Translations under genes and position numbers: made by a program
Notes under the pieces: generated by a model
Seen by the model: the letters and a program-made list of their open reading frames with translations, nothing else
What the model was told of the DNA's origin: nothing
Databases searched by the model: none
From: Sedimentisphaerales bacterium
GTDB lineage: Bacteria; Planctomycetota; Phycisphaerae; Sedimentisphaerales; SM23-30
Direction: 5' to 3'
Assembly: GCA_963663965.2 (NCBI GenBank)
Contig: CAXXFK010000019.1
Coordinates: 32,001-96,000 of the forward strand
DNA: 64,000 nucleotides
Shown here: positions 2,546 through 63,489 of the stretch, piece after piece
How positions within the stretch are numbered: the first letter of the stretch is position 1
Layout of the letters: every line of letters starts with the position of its first letter

Positions 2546-2574
2546 TTGACATCCATCAAACGCCAGTCTATAAT
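2546..2574 (+). promoter_or_regulatory. Perfect-consensus sigma70 promoter of array locus copy 1
   Basis: TTGACA (2546-2551), 17-bp spacer, TATAAT (2569-2574). The position is conserved in copy 2. Confidence 0.85.
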
Positions 2575-2880
2575 CCCAAAGTCGCCCCAATAGCCCCCGA
2601 ACCCCCGGTGTGCCCCACACCCAACCGGCCACGCCCGCATAACCCCTCTGCGCATAGACCGTGGCGCCTTCAAGCGCAGCTTGTGGGTGCATTCTTGGCT
2701 TGGTGCGATAGCGTACGAACCAGGCCCAACCAGCCAATTTATTTTGGCTGTTTTAACAATACGAATGAAATGGGATATACAAATATGACACAACCCGACA
2801 ACCCAGCCATAAAAGGCTTGAAAAGCCGAAAGTAACTAGCCGGGGTCCGTAAGGCCCCGGATAGCGATTGAAATTTAATA

Positions 2881-3325
2881 TTTAACCCACGCCTCGCAGA
2901 GGCGTACCGCCAGGATTTCGCACCGGAGGCGAAAGATAAAATAACCATGAGCGCAGCGAATACCAACATAAAACGTTGAGCGCAGCGAAATCCCGATCTA
3001 TCGGGAAAGCCAACGATGAAAATAATGACCCTAACCTCAACAACCAAATAAGCTTAACAAAAAATAAAAACTCATCCGCCTCAAGGCGGATACAAATAAT
3101 ATCTCGGAGAGATCAAAAGCGCATAGCCCGCCAATTCATTGGCGGGAATACCCGAACCCGAGTTAGAAAATTTTAAACCCACGCCTCGCAGAGGCGTACC
3201 GACAGGATATCTCGCAAAAGAGATAGATAAAACCAACATGAGCGCAGCGAATACCAATACAAAACGAAACAAACCCAATACATGAAATTTTTTCCATAAC
3301 ATCAATAAAAATTGACTTTAACGAA
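2881..3325 (+). repeat. Repeat-spacer array, copy 1 (2 units: 2881-3093 and 3171-~3325; spacer 3094-3170)
   Basis: Both units share TTTAA(A)CCCACGCCTCGCAGAGGCGTACCGxCAGGAT...AGATAAAA...CATGAGCGCAGCGAATACCAA..AAAACG...AAA(G/C)CCAA. Homologous to the three units at 60603-61346. Confidence 0.9.
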
Positions 3326-3380
3326 ACCCGAAACCATCGGGCCAAAACTTATAACAATCTTAAAACAGGAGGTACCAACC

Positions 3381-4220
3381 ATGTCATCGTCACTAAGAAG
3401 ACTCAGAGCCAACCGTCGTAACGCCCAGAAATCCACCGGCCCCAAAACCCCCGAAGGCAAGGCCATCTCATCCAGAAATGCCATCAAGCACGGCCTCAGC
3501 GGCCAGGACCCCGCCCATCTCATCGTCCCCGGCGAGTCCGAACTCACCTACCTCGAGTTCCGCGCCGCACTCCTGCAAGATCTCAAACCAACGACTTATC
3601 TCCAACGTCACATTGCCGACCAGATCGTCTCGGCCGCCTGGCGACTGGAACGCCTTGGCCGCATCGAAGCCGAAATGATCGACGCCCGCGTCTATCAACT
3701 CCGTCTCACCAACGAAGAAATCCGCAAAGACACCGTCATCGACCAGCCCTTCGCCCACTCCAGCATCTATCTTCCCCGCCACAACGAAGTCGGCGCCGCC
3801 TTCACCCTCGAAGTCCCCGCCTTCAACTGCCTGGCCCGCTACGAAGCCCACCTCAACCGAACCTTCCAGGCCAATCTTAAGCTCCTGCATCAGATGCAGT
3901 TACAACAAAAACCAAACGAACCCAATGCCTACCCGCCAGAGTACCCATTTCCCGATTTACCCCGTATCCACATTCCCGACCCTCCCAGAATCCCCACGCA
4001 CCCCAGCGAAGCCAAATTGGCCCCCGAATACATCAAAGACCGCCTGCCTGAGTTGATGAAAGACCACAGCGTAACTGACGACCAGGTCTTCAGTTACGCC
4101 TGCAACCGCTACGAAGCCCTCAACACCTTCTCCCAGCAGAACGGCGAAGAAGCCCTCCACGCCCTCGGCATCCCTACCAAACCACCCGCCGATATCCCCA
4201 TCCAGGAGGAAAAGAAATGA
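3381..4220 (+). CDS. Conserved hypothetical protein, 'ANRRNAQKSTGPKTPEGK..SSxNAxKHGL' family (copy 1, 279 aa)
   Basis: RBS AGGAGG lies just before ATG 3381. It differs from 59685-60524 at 14 amino acids by manual alignment, plus many synonymous changes. Confidence 0.9.
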   Translation: MSSSLRRLRANRRNAQKSTGPKTPEGKAISSRNAIKHGLSGQDPAHLIVPGESELTYLEFRAALLQDLKPTTYLQRHIADQIVSAAWRLERLGRIEAEMIDARVYQLRLTNEEIRKDTVIDQPFAHSSIYLPRHNEVGAAFTLEVPAFNCLARYEAHLNRTFQANLKLLHQMQLQQKPNEPNAYPPEYPFPDLPRIHIPDPPRIPTHPSEAKLAPEYIKDRLPELMKDHSVTDDQVFSYACNRYEALNTFSQQNGEEALHALGIPTKPPADIPIQEEKK

Positions 4221-4638
4221 CCAGATAAAAAGCCGGCTGACAGACAGTAACTTCAGGAATCATCACGATAGCAATGATGACATCACTTAATCCCTGCGCG
4301 CCTCTGAAGTTAGCTGTTGATAATCTGGGCAATCAATAAATATTGATATTAATGAATGATACAGAAAACAGATGTAAACGAGCGATAAGTACCCGTTGGC
4401 CACATAAATTGTAATCTTATTTTTATCAGTCACTTAGACTGCTGATGAAAATTGGGTTAATCGCGCTGGCGGACATAATGTCAAATTATCTCATGATTTG
4501 AGAAAAGGGATCCGGTGGTCTGAATCTTATAAAATAAAAGTAACCTTTCGTGTTGTCGTATGGTCTTTGGTTTTGTTGCCCAAAGACTCTGTGTGTGTAA
4601 GTCTTTGTGTTTCTAAATCTAATGGAGAGGATTAAAAG

Positions 4639-46208: not shown

Positions 46209-46595
46209 AATTGATAGAATGAAATAAGGTCCAGCTATCGGTAACCATTCGAGAGTTATCCAGATTACGACATAGATTACCAACCGAACAGAAATTTGAA
46301 TAATCGCTTAAAAAACAAAGGTAGAGACTCTCTACCTTTGTTTTTAGGAAAATCTGGGCAGCCCACAGTTCTCGGTTTAAGCTTTCATAGTAAATTGCCG
46401 GCTTCCTCCCGACTGATTCAAAACGAACCCAATTTTCACCATTTATCTAACAATACCATCCAGACTACCTTACCTGTTACGCCAGTAAATTGCTGTATCA
46501 ATAGTCCATGCTTTCAGATTATCCACAAAAAAAAGAGGCCGTCTCCCTATCAGGAAAAAGACCTCTTCAGATGGTTTTAAGTATTTGAAACTAAT

Positions 46596-58026: not shown

Positions 58027-59544
58027 TCAGGGCGTGGCGTCAGCGGTCTGGATCGCGTAGAGGTCGCGGCGCGTGGCGATGTATAAAACGCCATTGGCCG
58101 CGACGGGAGTACTGCTAATAGGGGCGTCAAATCGTACCTGGTCGAGGACCTGTTTTTCTTTACTGGCAGCCAGAATCCAGAATTCGCTGCGATGGGTGCC
58201 GACGTAGACTTTGCCGTCAGCAACCAGGGTTGAACCCCAGATTTCACCTTTGAGTTCGTGGGTCCAGAAGGGTTGGCCGGTTTCGGGATCGAGGCAATGG
58301 AGGGTACCGCCACAATCGCTCATGAACAGGAGACCATCGCGAATGGAGACCGAGGTACAGCAATGGTGATTCATGGGATAGGACCAGAGACGGGCGGAGT
58401 GGGTTATGTCGCCGGTCTGGGCGGCATCGACACAGATAAGCCAGGACTGGCGTTTGCCCCACCAGATATCGCCGCCGACGGTGACATAGATCCGGTTTTT
58501 ATAAAAGACCGGTGTACTCAGGATGTTGCTGGGGCCTTCCTGGCGGTTGCGATAATGACTGCGGACATCGACTTTTGGTGCAGTGGGATCGCAATCGAAG
58601 CGCCAGGCGAGTTCCAGGGGCAGAGGTGAAGCAGGCGAAAGACCGGGCTTCAGGGCTTTGAAGGTGTAGCAGATACCATCGCCGCCGCCGAAGCAAACCA
58701 AGCGCTGTCCGTTTACTTCGGAAAGCGCCGGTGAGGACCAAGTTGAGTGGAAGATATTGGGGCCGATTCGTTCGGTATCCCAGGCGACCAGATGGCCGGT
58801 GTGTTTATTGAGGACGATCAGACTGGGGGCATCGGGTTTTTGGATGGTTTGATGGGTGTTATCGACGCCGTTGCAGGTGTTTAGATAAAGGTAATCGCCA
58901 TCGATCAGGATGGAGGCATGAGCGGAGTCGTGGGGATAGGTGCCGGCGTCAGCCGGCATGTCGAAGAGCCAGATGATATCGGCGTCGAGTGGTGTAACGG
59001 AGAGGGGCTCATCATCGGCGGGTGTCATGTGGCGGCCTTCATCGAGGTAGGGGCCGTCGTTACCATTGGTCTGGCCGTTGAGGTCGAGACAGACCACTTC
59101 GAACCGGTTGGTGACTGTATAGGCGCGGTCGCCTTCGATGGTCGCAGGTGAACAGATGGAGATTTTGGGCCAGTCTTTATAGATATCGCCGGGAATGCGT
59201 GGGACGACCAGTTGCCAATTGAGATCGCCGTTGGCTTCGTTTAGACAGAGCAAAACGCCGCGGTCGCCTTTGTGGCGGGTGTCACGCGGTTTGGCGTTGT
59301 TCGCGCCGATGAATACTTTTCCGGCGGCGATGGTTGGGGTGCTGTAGGCGTCGGTGCCCAGTGAAACTTTCCATTTAATATCTTTGGTCAGGTCGATGTG
59401 TTGTGGCAGGCCGGTTTCGTCCGAGATCATGTTTCTGGACAGGGCTCGGCCCCATTGCGGGCTGTCCGCAGCGAAGGAGGGCAGGAGCCAGGAAAAACCG
59501 GTTATTATAGCTAACGCCATTGTGAGTCGATAGTTATGGTTCAT
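58027..59544 (-). CDS. PQQ-binding-like beta-propeller protein
   Basis: Motifs PQWG..SRNM, YSTP, WSSP and STPV. Confidence 0.88.
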   Translation of the reverse strand: MNHNYRLTMALAIITGFSWLLPSFAADSPQWGRALSRNMISDETGLPQHIDLTKDIKWKVSLGTDAYSTPTIAAGKVFIGANNAKPRDTRHKGDRGVLLCLNEANGDLNWQLVVPRIPGDIYKDWPKISICSPATIEGDRAYTVTNRFEVVCLDLNGQTNGNDGPYLDEGRHMTPADDEPLSVTPLDADIIWLFDMPADAGTYPHDSAHASILIDGDYLYLNTCNGVDNTHQTIQKPDAPSLIVLNKHTGHLVAWDTERIGPNIFHSTWSSPALSEVNGQRLVCFGGGDGICYTFKALKPGLSPASPLPLELAWRFDCDPTAPKVDVRSHYRNRQEGPSNILSTPVFYKNRIYVTVGGDIWWGKRQSWLICVDAAQTGDITHSARLWSYPMNHHCCTSVSIRDGLLFMSDCGGTLHCLDPETGQPFWTHELKGEIWGSTLVADGKVYVGTHRSEFWILAASKEKQVLDQVRFDAPISSTPVAANGVLYIATRRDLYAIQTADATP

Positions 59545-59684
59545 CAGGCAACTTTCTTATGGTTGGGTGGATCGTGATAGTGGTATTTGTCTTAAATATA
59601 ACTGCGCATAGTGTCTCTCATTGCATCATGGTGTCATGATGATTATAGGGGGCGGCGCGCCTTTATGTTGAAATCAGTAATGGA

Positions 59685-60524
59685 TTATTTCTTTTCCTCC
59701 TGGATGGGGATATCGGCCGGGGGTTTGGTGGGGATGCCGAGGGCGTGGAGGGCTTCTTCGCCGTTCTGCTGGGAGAACGTGTTGAGGGCTTCGTAGCGGT
59801 TGCAGGCGTAACTGAAGACCTGATCGTCAGTTACGCTGTGGTCTTTCATCAATTCGGGCAGGCGGTCTTTGATGTATTCGGGGGCCAATTTGGCTTCGCT
59901 GGGGTGTGTGGGGATTTTGGGGGGATCGGGGATGTGGATGCGGGGCAGGTTGGGAAATGGGTACTCGGGTGGGTAAACATTGGGTTCGTTTGGAACGGGT
60001 TGTAACTGAAGTTGCTGAAGGAGGTTGAGTTTGGCCTGGAAGATTCGATTGAGGTGGGCTTCGTAGCGGGCCAGGCAGTTGAAGGCGGGGGTTTCGAGGG
60101 TGAAGGCCGTGCCGACTTCGTTGTGGCGGGGAAGATAGATACTTGAGTGGGCGAAGGGTTGGTCGATGACGGTGTCTTTGCGGATTTCTTCGTTGGTGAG
60201 GCGGAGTTTATAGACGCGGGCGTCGATCATTTCGGCTTCGATGCGGCCGAGGCGTTCAAGGCGCCAGGCGGCCGAGACGATCTGGTCGGCGATGTGGCGC
60301 TGGAGATAAGTCGTTGGTTTGAGGTCTTGTAACAATGCGGCGCGGAATTCGAGGTAGGTGAGTTCGGACTCGCCGGGGACAATGAGGTGGGCGGGGTCCT
60401 GGCCGCTGAGGCCGTGTTTGATGGCATTCTTTGATGAGATGGCCTTGCCCTCGGGGGTTTTTGGGCCGGTGGATTTCTGGGCGTTACGACGGTTGGCGCG
60501 TAGTCTTCTTAGTGACGATGACAT
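59685..60524 (-). CDS. Conserved hypothetical protein, 'ANRRNAQKSTGPKTPEGK' family (copy 2, 279 aa)
   Basis: RBS AAGGAGG; paralog of 3381-4220. Confidence 0.9.
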   Translation of the reverse strand: MSSSLRRLRANRRNAQKSTGPKTPEGKAISSKNAIKHGLSGQDPAHLIVPGESELTYLEFRAALLQDLKPTTYLQRHIADQIVSAAWRLERLGRIEAEMIDARVYKLRLTNEEIRKDTVIDQPFAHSSIYLPRHNEVGTAFTLETPAFNCLARYEAHLNRIFQAKLNLLQQLQLQPVPNEPNVYPPEYPFPNLPRIHIPDPPKIPTHPSEAKLAPEYIKDRLPELMKDHSVTDDQVFSYACNRYEALNTFSQQNGEEALHALGIPTKPPADIPIQEEKK

Positions 60525-60553
60525 GGTGGGTACCTCCTTGGTTGGGAATTATT

Positions 60554-60588
60554 AATTACGAATTACGAGTTACGAGTTACGAATTACG
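60554..60588. repeat. 7-bp tandem repeat (ARTTACG)x5
   Basis: aattacg aattacg agttacg agttacg aattacg. Confidence 0.85.
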
Positions 60589-60602
60589 AATTTAAAATTG
60601 TG

Positions 60603-61346
60603 GTATCCGCCAAGTGGCGGATGTTCGTTTTATTTTTAGTTAAGCTCAATTCTTGGTTGAGGTTAGGGCGATATTTTTTCATGTTGGGTTTGTTTCGTTT
60701 TATGTTGGTATTCGCTGCGCTCATGGCTGGTTTTATCTTTCGCCTCCGGTGCGAAATCCTGCAGGTACGCCTCTGCGAGGCGTGGGTTTAAAATTTTCTA
60801 CGCTGGTTCGGGTATTCCCGCCAATGAATTGGCGGGCTATGCGCTTTTGATCTCTCCGAGATATTATTTGTATCCGCCATTCGGCGGATGATTTTTTTAT
60901 TTTTCGTTAAGCTCGTTTCATTGTTGGGGTTAGGGCAATATTTTAACCCATTGGCTTTGTTTCGTTTTCTGTTGGTATTCGCTGCGCTCATGGTAAGTTT
61001 TATCTATCTCTTTTGCGAGATATCCTGTCGGTACGCCTCTGCGAGGCGAGGGTTTAAAATTTCAATCTCATGATCGTTACCCAGGGTGGCGCTCGTCCCG
61101 TTATACGGGATTCGCTCTACCCTGGGCTGTTTTATGCCGGCCCGTTGGGCCGCTTTGGGTATCCGCCTGCGGCGGATGTTCGTATAATTTTGGTTAAGTT
61201 TCGTTCGTTGTTCAGGTTAGAGTGATATTTTTTCCTGTTGGCTTTGTTTCGTTTTGTGTTGGTATTCGCTGCTCTCATGTTAGTTTTATCTTTCGCCTCC
61301 GGTGCGAAATCCTGTCGGTACGCCTCTACGAGGCGTGGGTTTAAAA
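60603..61346 (-). repeat. Repeat-spacer array, copy 2 (3 units: 61159-61346, 60870-61059, 60603-60793)
   Basis: Three ~190-bp units with the same conserved blocks as copy 1, separated by two different spacers of about 76 and 99 bp. Confidence 0.92.
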
Positions 61347-61650
61347 TTAAATTTCAATCTCTATCCGGGGCCTTACGGACCCCGGCTAGTTACTTTCGGC
61401 TTTTCAAGCCTTTTATGGCTGGGTTGTCGGGTTGTGTCATATTTGTATATCCCATTTCATTCGTATTGTTAAAACAGCCAAAATAAATTGGCTGGTTGGG
61501 CCTGGTTCGTACGCTATCGCACCAAGCCAAGAATGCACCCATAAGCTGCGCTTGAAGGCGCCACGGTTTATGCGCATAAAATCTCTGTAGGCGTGGCCGG
61601 TTGGGTGTGGGGCACACCGGGGGTTCGGGGGCTATTGGGGCGACTTTGGG

Positions 61651-61679
61651 ATTATAGACTGAGTTGTTGTATTAGTCAA
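61651..61679 (-). promoter_or_regulatory. Sigma70 promoter of array locus copy 2
   Basis: On the minus strand: TTGACT (61679-61674), 17-bp spacer, TATAAT (61656-61651). Confidence 0.82.
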
Positions 61680-61839
61680 AACAAATATTATGTTTTTAAT
61701 TTAAATAACATAAAATTTAAGGTATTATGTTTTTGTGGTAGTTTAGTTTTAGAGGTGAAATTCAGCTGACCTATTCTTAATGGTTTATTAGTTATAGATT
61801 TATGTTGATTTAAGGCGTTGTCAACAAAATAATATACTC

Positions 61840-63383
61840 GTAACATTTTAGCCAACTGAAGCAAATTTTCTAAAATTGTCAAGAAAACGCTTGCGCCCGT
61901 GTTTGTTTTGTGTATGCTTAACAAGCATGAGCATGCATAGTAAAGCCCAACAGATTCTGGCCAACCTGAACGGACCGATGACGGCCGAGCAGGCGCGGGC
62001 GATATTTGCCTTGGGTGAAGAGGCGGTGGTGTTTGCTTTGCTGAAATTGTCGTCGCTTCAGACCGTTTCGCCCGCTTCCACTACGGGGGCGTTGGGGCCT
62101 CACGATCCCTCGTGCTCTTCGGGACAGAAACCGCCGTTTGTCAAAGACAATCTCTCGGACAAGCGGCGTAAGAAACTCAAGGGACGCAAAGCGGGTCATC
62201 CCGGCGTTCGCCGACCGGCTCCTGACCGGGTCGACCGGACCGAAGCGCATCGGGCCGACTGTTGTCCGGATTGCGGCGGCCACCTGAAGCGCTGTGCCGA
62301 GACCCGCGAACGACTGATCGAAGACCTGCCCGCCTCGACCCGCATTGAAGTCGTTCGCCATATCATTCATCGCGACTGGTGTTCCAACTGCCGCAAGATG
62401 GTTGAACCGGTGATTGACGCCGCTCTGCCACGCGCCACCGTTGGCAATGGGATGCTGGTGTTGTGCGCCTGGCTGCATTTTGCCCTGGGCAACACGATTT
62501 CGCAGATTCTGGCGGTGTTCAATTACCATTTGCAATTTAAAATGTCCGGCGGCGGCCTGGTGCAGATGTGGCACCGGCTGGCGACCATTCTGGAAGCCTG
62601 GTACGATGAAATTCTGGCTGACATTCAGAAGGTCGGCGCCTTGTTTGCCGACGAGACGGGCTGGCGGATGGATGGCAAAACCCATTGGCTCTGGTGCTTT
62701 ACCAGCGCGACGGCCACCATCTTTACTATCGAGCAATCGCGGGCCGGGCCGGTGGTGCTGGCGTTTATTAAAGAATGGTTCGACGGCGTGTTGGTGAGCG
62801 ACTTCTGGTACGCTTACAATGTGCTGGATTGCGCCAAACAAAAATGCCTGGTGCACCTGTTGCGCGAGTTGGAGCGGGTCAAAAAATATAAGAACTGCGA
62901 CAGCGACTGGCCCCGGTTTGGCAAATCGCTCAAGCGGTTGCTGCGCGATGCCATCCGTCTGAGCAAGCGGCAGGCGGACCTGGAACCGGCCATCTACCAG
63001 CGGCGTTGCGCCCTCATCGAAAAACGACTGCAAGCGATTCTGGATCATGCCTGGTCCCATCCCGATGCCAAGCGGCTGATAAAACGGCTCAAACGTCATC
63101 AAGCCGAACTGTTTACCTTTTTGTATCATCCGGAAGTGCCCTTCGACAATAACTTCGGCGAACGCAGTATCCGTGGCGCAGTGATCATGCGCAAAAACAG
63201 CTACAACAACCGCAGCCCGCGGGGCGCCCGCATCCAATCCATCCTGATGAGCGTGTTCTACACCCTCAAACAGCGTGGTCTCAATCCGGTCGCCGCTGTC
63301 AAAAAAGCACTGCAAATCTATCTCCAAACGGGTAAATTACCTACTTTAGCCCAATTACCTGCTTCACTTGGCTAAAATCTTAC
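61840..63383 (+). mobile_element. IS66 family element, single-ORF (ISBst12-like), 1544 bp
   Basis: 24-bp TIRs gtaacattttagccaactgaagca and tgcttcacttggctaaaatcttac (2 mismatches), with an 8-bp TSD ATATACTC at 61832-61839 and 63384-63391. Confidence 0.95.
61927..63375 (+). CDS. IS66 family transposase (TnpC)
   Basis: Motifs GRKAGHPG, CPDCG..CSNC zinc finger, ADETGW, LVSD, QKCLVHLLR and DNNFGERSIR. Confidence 0.93.
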   Translation: MSMHSKAQQILANLNGPMTAEQARAIFALGEEAVVFALLKLSSLQTVSPASTTGALGPHDPSCSSGQKPPFVKDNLSDKRRKKLKGRKAGHPGVRRPAPDRVDRTEAHRADCCPDCGGHLKRCAETRERLIEDLPASTRIEVVRHIIHRDWCSNCRKMVEPVIDAALPRATVGNGMLVLCAWLHFALGNTISQILAVFNYHLQFKMSGGGLVQMWHRLATILEAWYDEILADIQKVGALFADETGWRMDGKTHWLWCFTSATATIFTIEQSRAGPVVLAFIKEWFDGVLVSDFWYAYNVLDCAKQKCLVHLLRELERVKKYKNCDSDWPRFGKSLKRLLRDAIRLSKRQADLEPAIYQRRCALIEKRLQAILDHAWSHPDAKRLIKRLKRHQAELFTFLYHPEVPFDNNFGERSIRGAVIMRKNSYNNRSPRGARIQSILMSVFYTLKQRGLNPVAAVKKALQIYLQTGKLPTLAQLPASLG

Positions 63384-63489
63384 ATATACTCTGTGTTATA
63401 TAAAGACCCGTTGATCGAATCATAGTTACTGTGTTTTATTATAATCAGAGCGATATCAATCATGCCCATTTAATGAACACGGAAAGAAT

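Follow-up and report, generated by a model that had tools for sequence, protein, structure and literature searches.

In the BIME/REPtron system of E. coli, repeats co-occur with one gene family, TnpA-REP, and IS110 inserts into the repeat hairpin. BIME-2 and atypical BIMEs are tandem units of small palindromes with a few recurring linkers and a number that varies by locus, and the tandem copies at one locus are well conserved (PMC3333891). The REPtron has an HUH (Y1) transposase, and its REP and inverted REP sequences alternate. A promoter, leader and array next to a gene is the layout of CRISPR and TIGR-Tas systems. CRISPR arrays have short, near-identical repeats of a known family, with cas genes nearby, and unique, unrelated spacers that match foreign DNA and are added at the leader end. 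TIGR arrays have 36-nt (or stem-loop) units with two programmable spacers of 8-12 nt between box C and box D, they yield processed guide RNA, and their Tas protein has a Nop domain (PMC12045711). In packaging systems, the small terminase (TerS) picks DNA by recognising pac sites (PMC7947584). The TerS of a SaPI redirects the large terminase (TerL) of the helper, supplied in trans, to the pac site of the island and to chromosomal pseudo-pac sites (PMC6687093). PICIs carry att sites, an integrase, a primase-replicase and regulators. Classical IS and MITE elements have terminal inverted repeats, a target duplication and a known transposase.

We analyzed a stretch of 64 kb, referred to as the window, from a Sedimentisphaerales genome of 7.24 Mb in 42 contigs. 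The window contains two inverted copies of one element. The repeat array in each copy is the repeat region of a dispersed element of about 2.3 kb, which is made up of a promoter, a leader, one to five units and one gene. The element is small, multicopy and previously undescribed. None of the known classes tested fits it, and it falls outside CRISPR, TIGR, REPtron, IS and PICI by the features that define them.

Like BIME-2 and atypical BIMEs, the element has tandem units with small palindromes, few recurring linkers and a unit number that varies by locus. Its repeats also co-occur with one gene family, and IS110 has inserted into a hairpin. Unlike BIMEs, its units are about 190 nt long and are built around a non-palindromic word with phased boxes. 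They lie head-to-tail on one strand instead of alternating, the HUH transposase is lacking, and gene and array have spread together as a 26-copy element. With SaPIs and PICIs the element shares a TerS-like protein of its own, a candidate site located within the gene for it and many more candidate sites around the chromosome. Its large terminase would likewise be supplied in trans. Primase, integrase or recombinase genes stand beside 9 of 45 homologous bacterial loci, as they would in a PICI. Unlike a PICI or SaPI, the element is 2.3 kb long, holds a single ORF with no integrase, primase or repressor, and is present in 26 chromosomal copies. The TerS likeness of its protein is limited to about 50 residues, unlike that of SaPI TerS, and its binding and packaging roles are predictions. 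Classical IS and MITE elements differ in that no terminal inverted repeats, target duplication (13 elements) or known transposase was found for the element.

Structure of the element

The gene of the element encodes a 279-aa protein. There are 26 intact, full-length copies in the genome, with 91-100% amino-acid identity, and one fragment. Every one of the 26 copies has a unit array upstream, and the flanks of each element copy are unique. A search of the genome with a profile of the three units of copy 2 returned 132 matches, full and partial, which lie ahead of all copies of the gene and also in arrays that lack it. In the 13 elements with both ends placed, no target duplication was found; the longest common flank string was 4.5 nt, compared with 4.4 nt in controls.

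Copy 2 of the window is on the minus strand. The left-end motif (63391-63405), at the left boundary common to most copies, is cut off from the rest of the copy by an IS66 element on the plus strand (61840-63383). The IS66 has 24-nt terminal inverted repeats and an 8-bp target duplication at 61832-61839 and 63384-63391. Next comes an AT-rich upstream region (61680-61831) with about 69% identity to the closest other copies and an operator-like inverted repeat adjoining the -35 box. The promoter (61651-61679) is predicted from its match to the sigma-70-type consensus, with 11 of 12 matches and 17-nt spacing. It is followed by the leader (61349-61650), which is 99.3% identical to that of element E14 on contig C20 and 96.1% identical to that of window copy 1. 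Unit 1 (61157-61348) contains the H1 hairpin (61320-61336), hairpin allele A (61291-61309), the core word (61238-61249) and the terminal hairpin (61161-61177), and its nearest relative is a unit of E14 (98.4%). Linker type S2 (61062-61156), with two hairpins, leads to unit 2 (60870-61061), which has allele B (61006-61021), the core word at 60951-60962 and its nearest relative in element E2 on contig C3 (95.8%). Linker type S1 (60796-60869), with one hairpin, leads to unit 3 (60603-60795), which has allele A (60738-60756), the core word at 60684-60695 and its nearest relative also in E2 (99.0%). The 5' untranslated region (60525-60602) has a short tandem repeat and a ribosome-binding site (60530-60538). 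A fourth core word (59980-59991) lies within the gene itself (59685-60524). The right-end region (59595-59684) has a degenerate half-site, a variable hairpin and a short end motif (59603-59608).

Copy 1 is on the plus strand (2569-4300). Its -10 box is at 2569, its units are at 2877-3093 and 3169-3331 with S1 between them (3094-3168), and its gene is at 3381-4220. The second unit is without the terminal hairpin. An earlier note on this DNA had read copy 2 as A-[S2]-B-[S1]-A and copy 1 as A-[S1]-B. Both readings hold, with three minus-strand units of about 192 nt joined by S2 and then S1 in copy 2, and with the order at 2877-3331 in copy 1.

The full unit was absent from the 60 relatives searched, where only pieces of 22-32 nt were found in 3 genomes. 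The unit has a conserved central box, which in two related genomes also occurs by itself as a dispersed repeat (L125, L126, L128, L129). On the antisense strand, the terminal hairpins look like intrinsic terminators (60602-60625, 60871-60890 and 61156-61182, plus strand).

Several other mobile or repeated sequences were seen in and around the elements. IS110 is inserted at one identical point of the S2 hairpin in two elements other than those of the window, with a short remnant in a third; the IS insertions span E2 on C3, E24 on C36 (L050:2374-3609), E7 on C12 and E20 on C28. A 348-aa transposase-like ORF with 15 copies in the genome, which we take to be ISL3-like, lies within a fourth array. 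Small palindromic repeats, including GTAG-footed hairpins, are found at 1930-2120 and 2321-2341 of the window and at many genomic sites. A 15-nt repeat has 34 copies in or near elements and 31 elsewhere in the genome. Two multicopy ORF families of the genome may resemble Y1/RAYT transposases.

The 12-bp word and its link to the gene

A 12-bp word, AAACRAASCCAA, is present in every unit. The genome holds 258 copies, 126 in or near elements and 132 elsewhere, while three permuted control words gave 2-11. Within the unit the word is followed by TAAC 18 nt later and by TTA about 22 nt further. This geometry recurs outside the arrays: of 121 non-redundant sites there, 37 have TAAC 18 nt after the word, while shuffles gave at most 8, and 43 have TTA at offset 40. 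The earlier note had described two fixed-length windows, of 18 and 15 nt, in each unit. These are present in all three units of copy 2 on the minus strand: at 61220-61237 and 61201-61215 in unit 1, at 60933-60950 and 60914-60928 in unit 2, and at 60666-60683 and 60647-60661 in unit 3. Exactly this 18/15-nt geometry is found in 65 of 73 parsed units genome-wide. Since the box geometry is kept outside arrays, the windows would be gaps of constrained length between boxes that stand about two helical turns apart. In the relative L047, 7 copies of the word stand at a spacing of 10-11 bp.

The word also follows the gene beyond this genome. At homologous loci from several phyla, the word was found in 25 of 45, and 32 of the 35 word matches lie 466-905 nt from the gene start. 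A further set of homologous loci had it in 22 of 24. Among 258 homologues, 74 have a translation of the word in their tail, compared with 19 for reversed controls. Across 150 genomes of the order, the gene is present in 45 of the 49 with at least 15 words and in 12 of the 101 with fewer. The link also holds within two families, where word-rich and word-poor genomes have the gene in 19/21 vs 7/23 and 25/27 vs 2/16, respectively. These genome counts overstate the strength of the link because related genomes are not independent. The exceptions are 12 genomes that have the gene with few words and 4 that have many words and no detected gene. Co-occurrence and geometry together make it rather probable that the element's protein reads the word as its site.

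Word copies were also seen in other settings. Inside the window but outside the arrays, one is at 46421-46432, with the downstream geometry, and another at 59231-59242, within a coding region. In the relatives L013, L017, L018, L021, L022 and L046, the word lies 875-905 nt away from the start of the gene and on the opposite strand, and several of these loci adjoin genes for DUF3987 or a recombinase, a setting that resembles a satellite. A search of the genome collection with the strict word-box pattern found 3 isolated matches. A strand bias of the word (87 of 115 clusters on the C-rich strand) was rejected as a signal, because A/C-rich control words behave alike (25/34 and 50/75).

The 279-aa protein

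The protein belongs to a family of 21,579 clusters at 50% identity. The 279-aa protein itself has no Pfam or NCBIfam match, and a Pfam search over 126 aligned family members gave nothing but three single unrelated matches. The polar residues S18, H37, E52, R91, E96 and Y154 are nearly invariant. The predicted model is all-helical, with a long helical hairpin and a mean pLDDT of 78. Fold searches gave no clear match: Foldseek returned 0 at E 0.001 in PDB and BFVD, the best result (VIA, Z 8.3) is a generic helical hairpin, and the match to TasH (Z 7.1, rmsd 2.5, 68 aligned) is a generic coiled-coil. Sequence and profile searches of PDB found repeat or coiled-coil noise only.

Four copies of residues 1-180 were predicted to pack side by side with a score of 0.77 (best control 0.01). 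Of 30 solved pairs, 20 came up to the score mark, as did 1 of 23 single chains, and a four-copy job is unlike this calibration. Contacts agree to at least 70% between the prediction runs, with pLDDT of at least 71. The protein is thus predicted to self-oligomerize.

The first 50 or so residues form a module that the protein shares with phage small terminases, and the homology covers residues 2-49 only. In viral contigs, the module is in the gene directly before an ORF of 580-680 aa in 12 of 21 cases, and 9 of these 12 ORFs have a large-terminase PHROG match; the 12 viral TerS-TerL loci include two near-duplicate pairs. The 279-aa protein as a whole has no PHROG match, one of 126 family members matches at E 0.006, and no phage record matches the protein at E 0.01. 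With Pfam, no terminase or portal was found among 106 neighbors of 45 homologous genes, which is a weak test because Pfam also missed the TerL of this genome. In titles and the opening lines of abstracts, the element, the word, the peptide motifs, a Sedimentisphaerales terminase and domesticated terminases were not found. The name HGGxSTG likewise had no match in the literature searched.

Packaging genes of the host and a proposed role

A second gene family in the genome is related to small terminases. This 261-aa family has 15 genomic copies, all of which have the same promoter motif as the element, including its -10 context. The word is present at 14 of them, and unit modules come after 6 of the 15. 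The family is homologous (21 bits) to the genes that precede TerL in relatives and that PHROG classes as small terminases; neither the 279-aa protein nor a reversed control matched these genes. One 261-aa copy is directly before the TerL of the genome. The 279-aa protein has no detectable relation to TerS of this host type. The 261-aa copies (15 loci, such as C1:137704-138486) have an Asn/Pro-rich tail that consists of translated word-box units. A repeat of about 90 nt with paired ends lies upstream of one TerS-derived gene (C1:137375-137465) and at about 20-30 other sites.

Among 151 genomes of the order, TerL was detected in 136 and a major capsid gene in 122, in almost all cases as a single copy, and the capsid protein is mostly 60-75% identical across the order. 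In the present genome a single-copy TerS-TerL pair is at C30:122209-124448, apart from a cluster of portal, scaffold and major capsid genes at C30:195449-205170. Conserved across the order as single copies, these terminase, portal and capsid genes may form an undescribed gene transfer agent. None of the 12 viral TerS-TerL loci contains the word, nor does it occur on the sense strand of any of the 24 TerL loci from relatives. It is therefore not the conserved pac site of that TerL, and a role as the pac site of the host TerL is not supported.

Our overall reading, to which we give about an even chance, is that the array is a mosaic in the manner of BIMEs, composed of DNA sites that the TerS-like protein of the element itself recognizes. 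The working part of each unit would be a double-stranded DNA site, formed by the 12-bp word and the phased TAAC and TTA boxes. This site would be read by the protein of the element, a predicted helical self-oligomer with a small-terminase-like N-terminal module. In favor of such a site, the core word and the windows remain unpaired in the predicted fold, and the short ORF of the units has no third-codon bias. Unit number and order change as the more than 100 dispersed units and the two types of linker recombine or undergo gene conversion, with no acquisition from outside. The protein and its multiplied sites might then act as a TerS-pac pair, which would steer the host's conserved packaging, of the gene transfer agent type, toward the element and its flanks. 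We put this packaging role forward tentatively. Such steering would explain why the gene is intact in every copy, and a link to the conserved capsid and terminase genes of the host is possible. Packaging alone would not insert a copy at a new locus. A fuller and more speculative scenario is a one-gene parasite of a gene-transfer-agent-like system, with an alternative TerS-like protein, tandem packaging sites and recombination among copies, into whose framework the host TerS was drawn and then amplified.

Other roles for the protein and the units

The protein could instead be a new site-specific recombinase or strand-transfer enzyme for the word. It would then spread and shuffle the units in the manner of a REP transposase, with the occasional capture of genes such as host TerS. 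The element has no other mobility gene, linkage blocks are very short, and six polar residues of the family are nearly invariant. Relatives also pair one gene per genome with up to hundreds of words, as TnpA-REP is paired with BIMEs (PMC3333891). However, the HUH motif is absent from the family, in which one His is conserved, the protein has no Pfam or NCBIfam match, and the invariant residues are mostly in the module shared with TerS or at the predicted oligomer interface. The head-to-tail units are moreover homologous enough for host recombination. We therefore consider an enzyme of this kind unlikely.

The hairpins of the units suggest another role. Hairpins A and B, compared as strings, are alleles of one 6-bp stem that are two compensated pairs apart. 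The stems in general are conserved, with some compensated changes, while the loops are free to vary. A double-stranded site leaves these conserved, compensated stems unexplained, so they point to a role as single-stranded DNA or RNA. The array could act as a long structured 5' leader (or as antisense terminators) in which unpaired A/C-rich stretches bind the protein, giving autoregulation or titration. The strong promoter consensus upstream, the location of array and gene on one strand, the terminator-like look of three terminal hairpins on the opposite strand and the single-strand orientation of 40 of 41 multi-word clusters would all suit this role. Against it, the word-box geometry is also found within coding sequence and at 132 sites without the hairpin set, the periodicity of 11 bp suits double-stranded DNA, and Rfam gave no match in the window. 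On balance an RNA role seems quite unlikely to us.

It is very unlikely that the units are functionless, that is, leftover hairpin repeats and words that were passively amplified beside a paralogue family useful to the host. Other small repeats and IS elements do pile up in the arrays, and in a related genome one box of the unit stands by itself as a repeat. Yet the window lengths are fixed in most units, the stems are compensated, and the link between gene and word holds across phyla.

Each unit also has a short ORF, which is open in 39 of 60 units. It was rejected as coding and is not treated as such here, because in 29 units the first, second and third codon positions vary to the same degree (0.18, 0.18 and 0.16).

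Gain, loss and recombination of units

The earlier note had proposed that the array gains, loses or recombines units. This is borne out across the genome, where the 26 elements have 1-5 units each and are mosaic. Copy 2 is a patchwork, with leader and unit 1 closest to E14 and units 2 and 3 closest to E2, at the identities given above, and the units of copy 1 are closest to E15 and E5. Of 61 full-length units, 57 have their nearest relative in another array and 4 in the same array, which differs from the conserved tandem copies of a BIME locus (PMC3333891). Linkage (r2) is 0.20 for sites within 25 nt of each other and only about 0.03 for those more than 75 nt apart. In the gene, four-gamete incompatibility is 0.61 for near and 0.78 for far pairs, a difference seen in 0 of 500 permutations. 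The 26 gene copies are all intact with dN/dS of 0.095, and at their dS of 0.28 part of the four-gamete signal may be due to recurrent mutation. The patchwork, the short linkage and the sign of recombination in the gene together point to recombination or gene conversion among dispersed copies. Judged by these sequence comparisons, the dynamics of the array are very probably recombinational and BIME-like.

Misassembly of similar repeats could also produce a difference in unit number, and a chimeric assembly would likewise give a patchwork look. The genome has about 130 similar units, and no read or contig crosses the whole array. The assembly was checked against public Logan unitigs, none of which spans the array. 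The copy-specific pieces 60487-60699, 61141-61267 and 61636-61869 are matched by unitigs of the run with 0 differences. In addition, units within an array differ by 15% on average, the patchwork extends to nearly all units and to the gene, and each copy has unique flanks. Misassembly is thus highly improbable.

Only two types of linker were found in the 26 elements, with 28 copies of S1 and 20 of S2; the count for E24 takes in the part of its array beyond the inserted IS. The earlier note had described S1 as shared by the two copies of the window. It is indeed common to both, with the first 65 nt identical, which is unremarkable given that the genome has 31 copies of S1 at 80% identity or more. 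S2 had been called unique, which is true inside the window only. At 80% identity or more, 25 copies of it are spread over 15 contigs of the genome, among them one at 100% (C20) and one at 99% (C42). S2 had further been taken as a new promoter-proximal spacer, which raised the possibility of polarized acquisition as in CRISPR. Comparison of linker order among the paralogous arrays of this one genome does not bear this out. Of the 25 arrays that have a linker, 15 begin with S1 on the promoter side and 10 with S2, and all eight kinds of hairpin-linker adjacency occur. Among the 11 arrays with both types, S2 is first in 5, S1 is first in 4 and 2 are mixed, which is the random order that the note had set against acquisition.

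For the two windows, the note had suggested a comparison with the genome and with phage and plasmid databases. Among 36 distinct 18-nt windows, position 9 is A in 36/36, and positions 12, 13 and 16 are each constant in 35/36. When 18 windows of each kind were sampled, their best matches elsewhere in the genome were no better than those of shuffles. The whole array matched no phage, and in plasmids it matched a simple repeat only. All windows thus derive from one consensus, from which they have diverged by point variants, and they are not captured sequence. A diversity-generating retroelement was also considered and was rejected, as the variation is not adenine-specific.

The layout of promoter, leader, array and gene and the two fixed-length variable stretches per unit are what the element has in common with CRISPR and TIGR-Tas systems (PMC12045711). 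Its two recurring linkers contrast with unique CRISPR spacers, its unpolarized order with addition at the leader, and its linkers and windows without phage or target match with spacers that match foreign DNA. CRISPR repeats are near-identical, whereas the units of the element are 82-85% alike, have no Rfam match and have no Cas protein at their locus; the single cas1 of the genome is on another contig (C33). In place of the short units and programmable spacers of TIGR, the element has units of about 190 nt with windows of 18 and 15 nt that follow one consensus with near-invariant columns. The Nop domain of TIGR-Tas has no Pfam match in the element's protein or in the genome. On this evidence it is extremely improbable that the array works like CRISPR or TIGR, taking up spacers at its promoter end and guiding the protein.

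Significance

With these results, a false CRISPR-like lead is removed, and a testable protein-DNA pair takes its place. For work on this pair, the genome provides 26 intact copies of the gene, 258 occurrences of the word and a site whose geometry is defined. If the protein were an enzyme that acts on the word, it would represent a new class of recombinase. If the TerS-pac reading is true, a one-gene element would selfishly steer the gene-transfer particles of its host. Should the element prove to live as a parasite on a system like a gene transfer agent, its very large, unnamed protein family and the 12-bp word would together constitute a widespread mechanism, not described before, for choosing the chromosomal DNA that is packaged.
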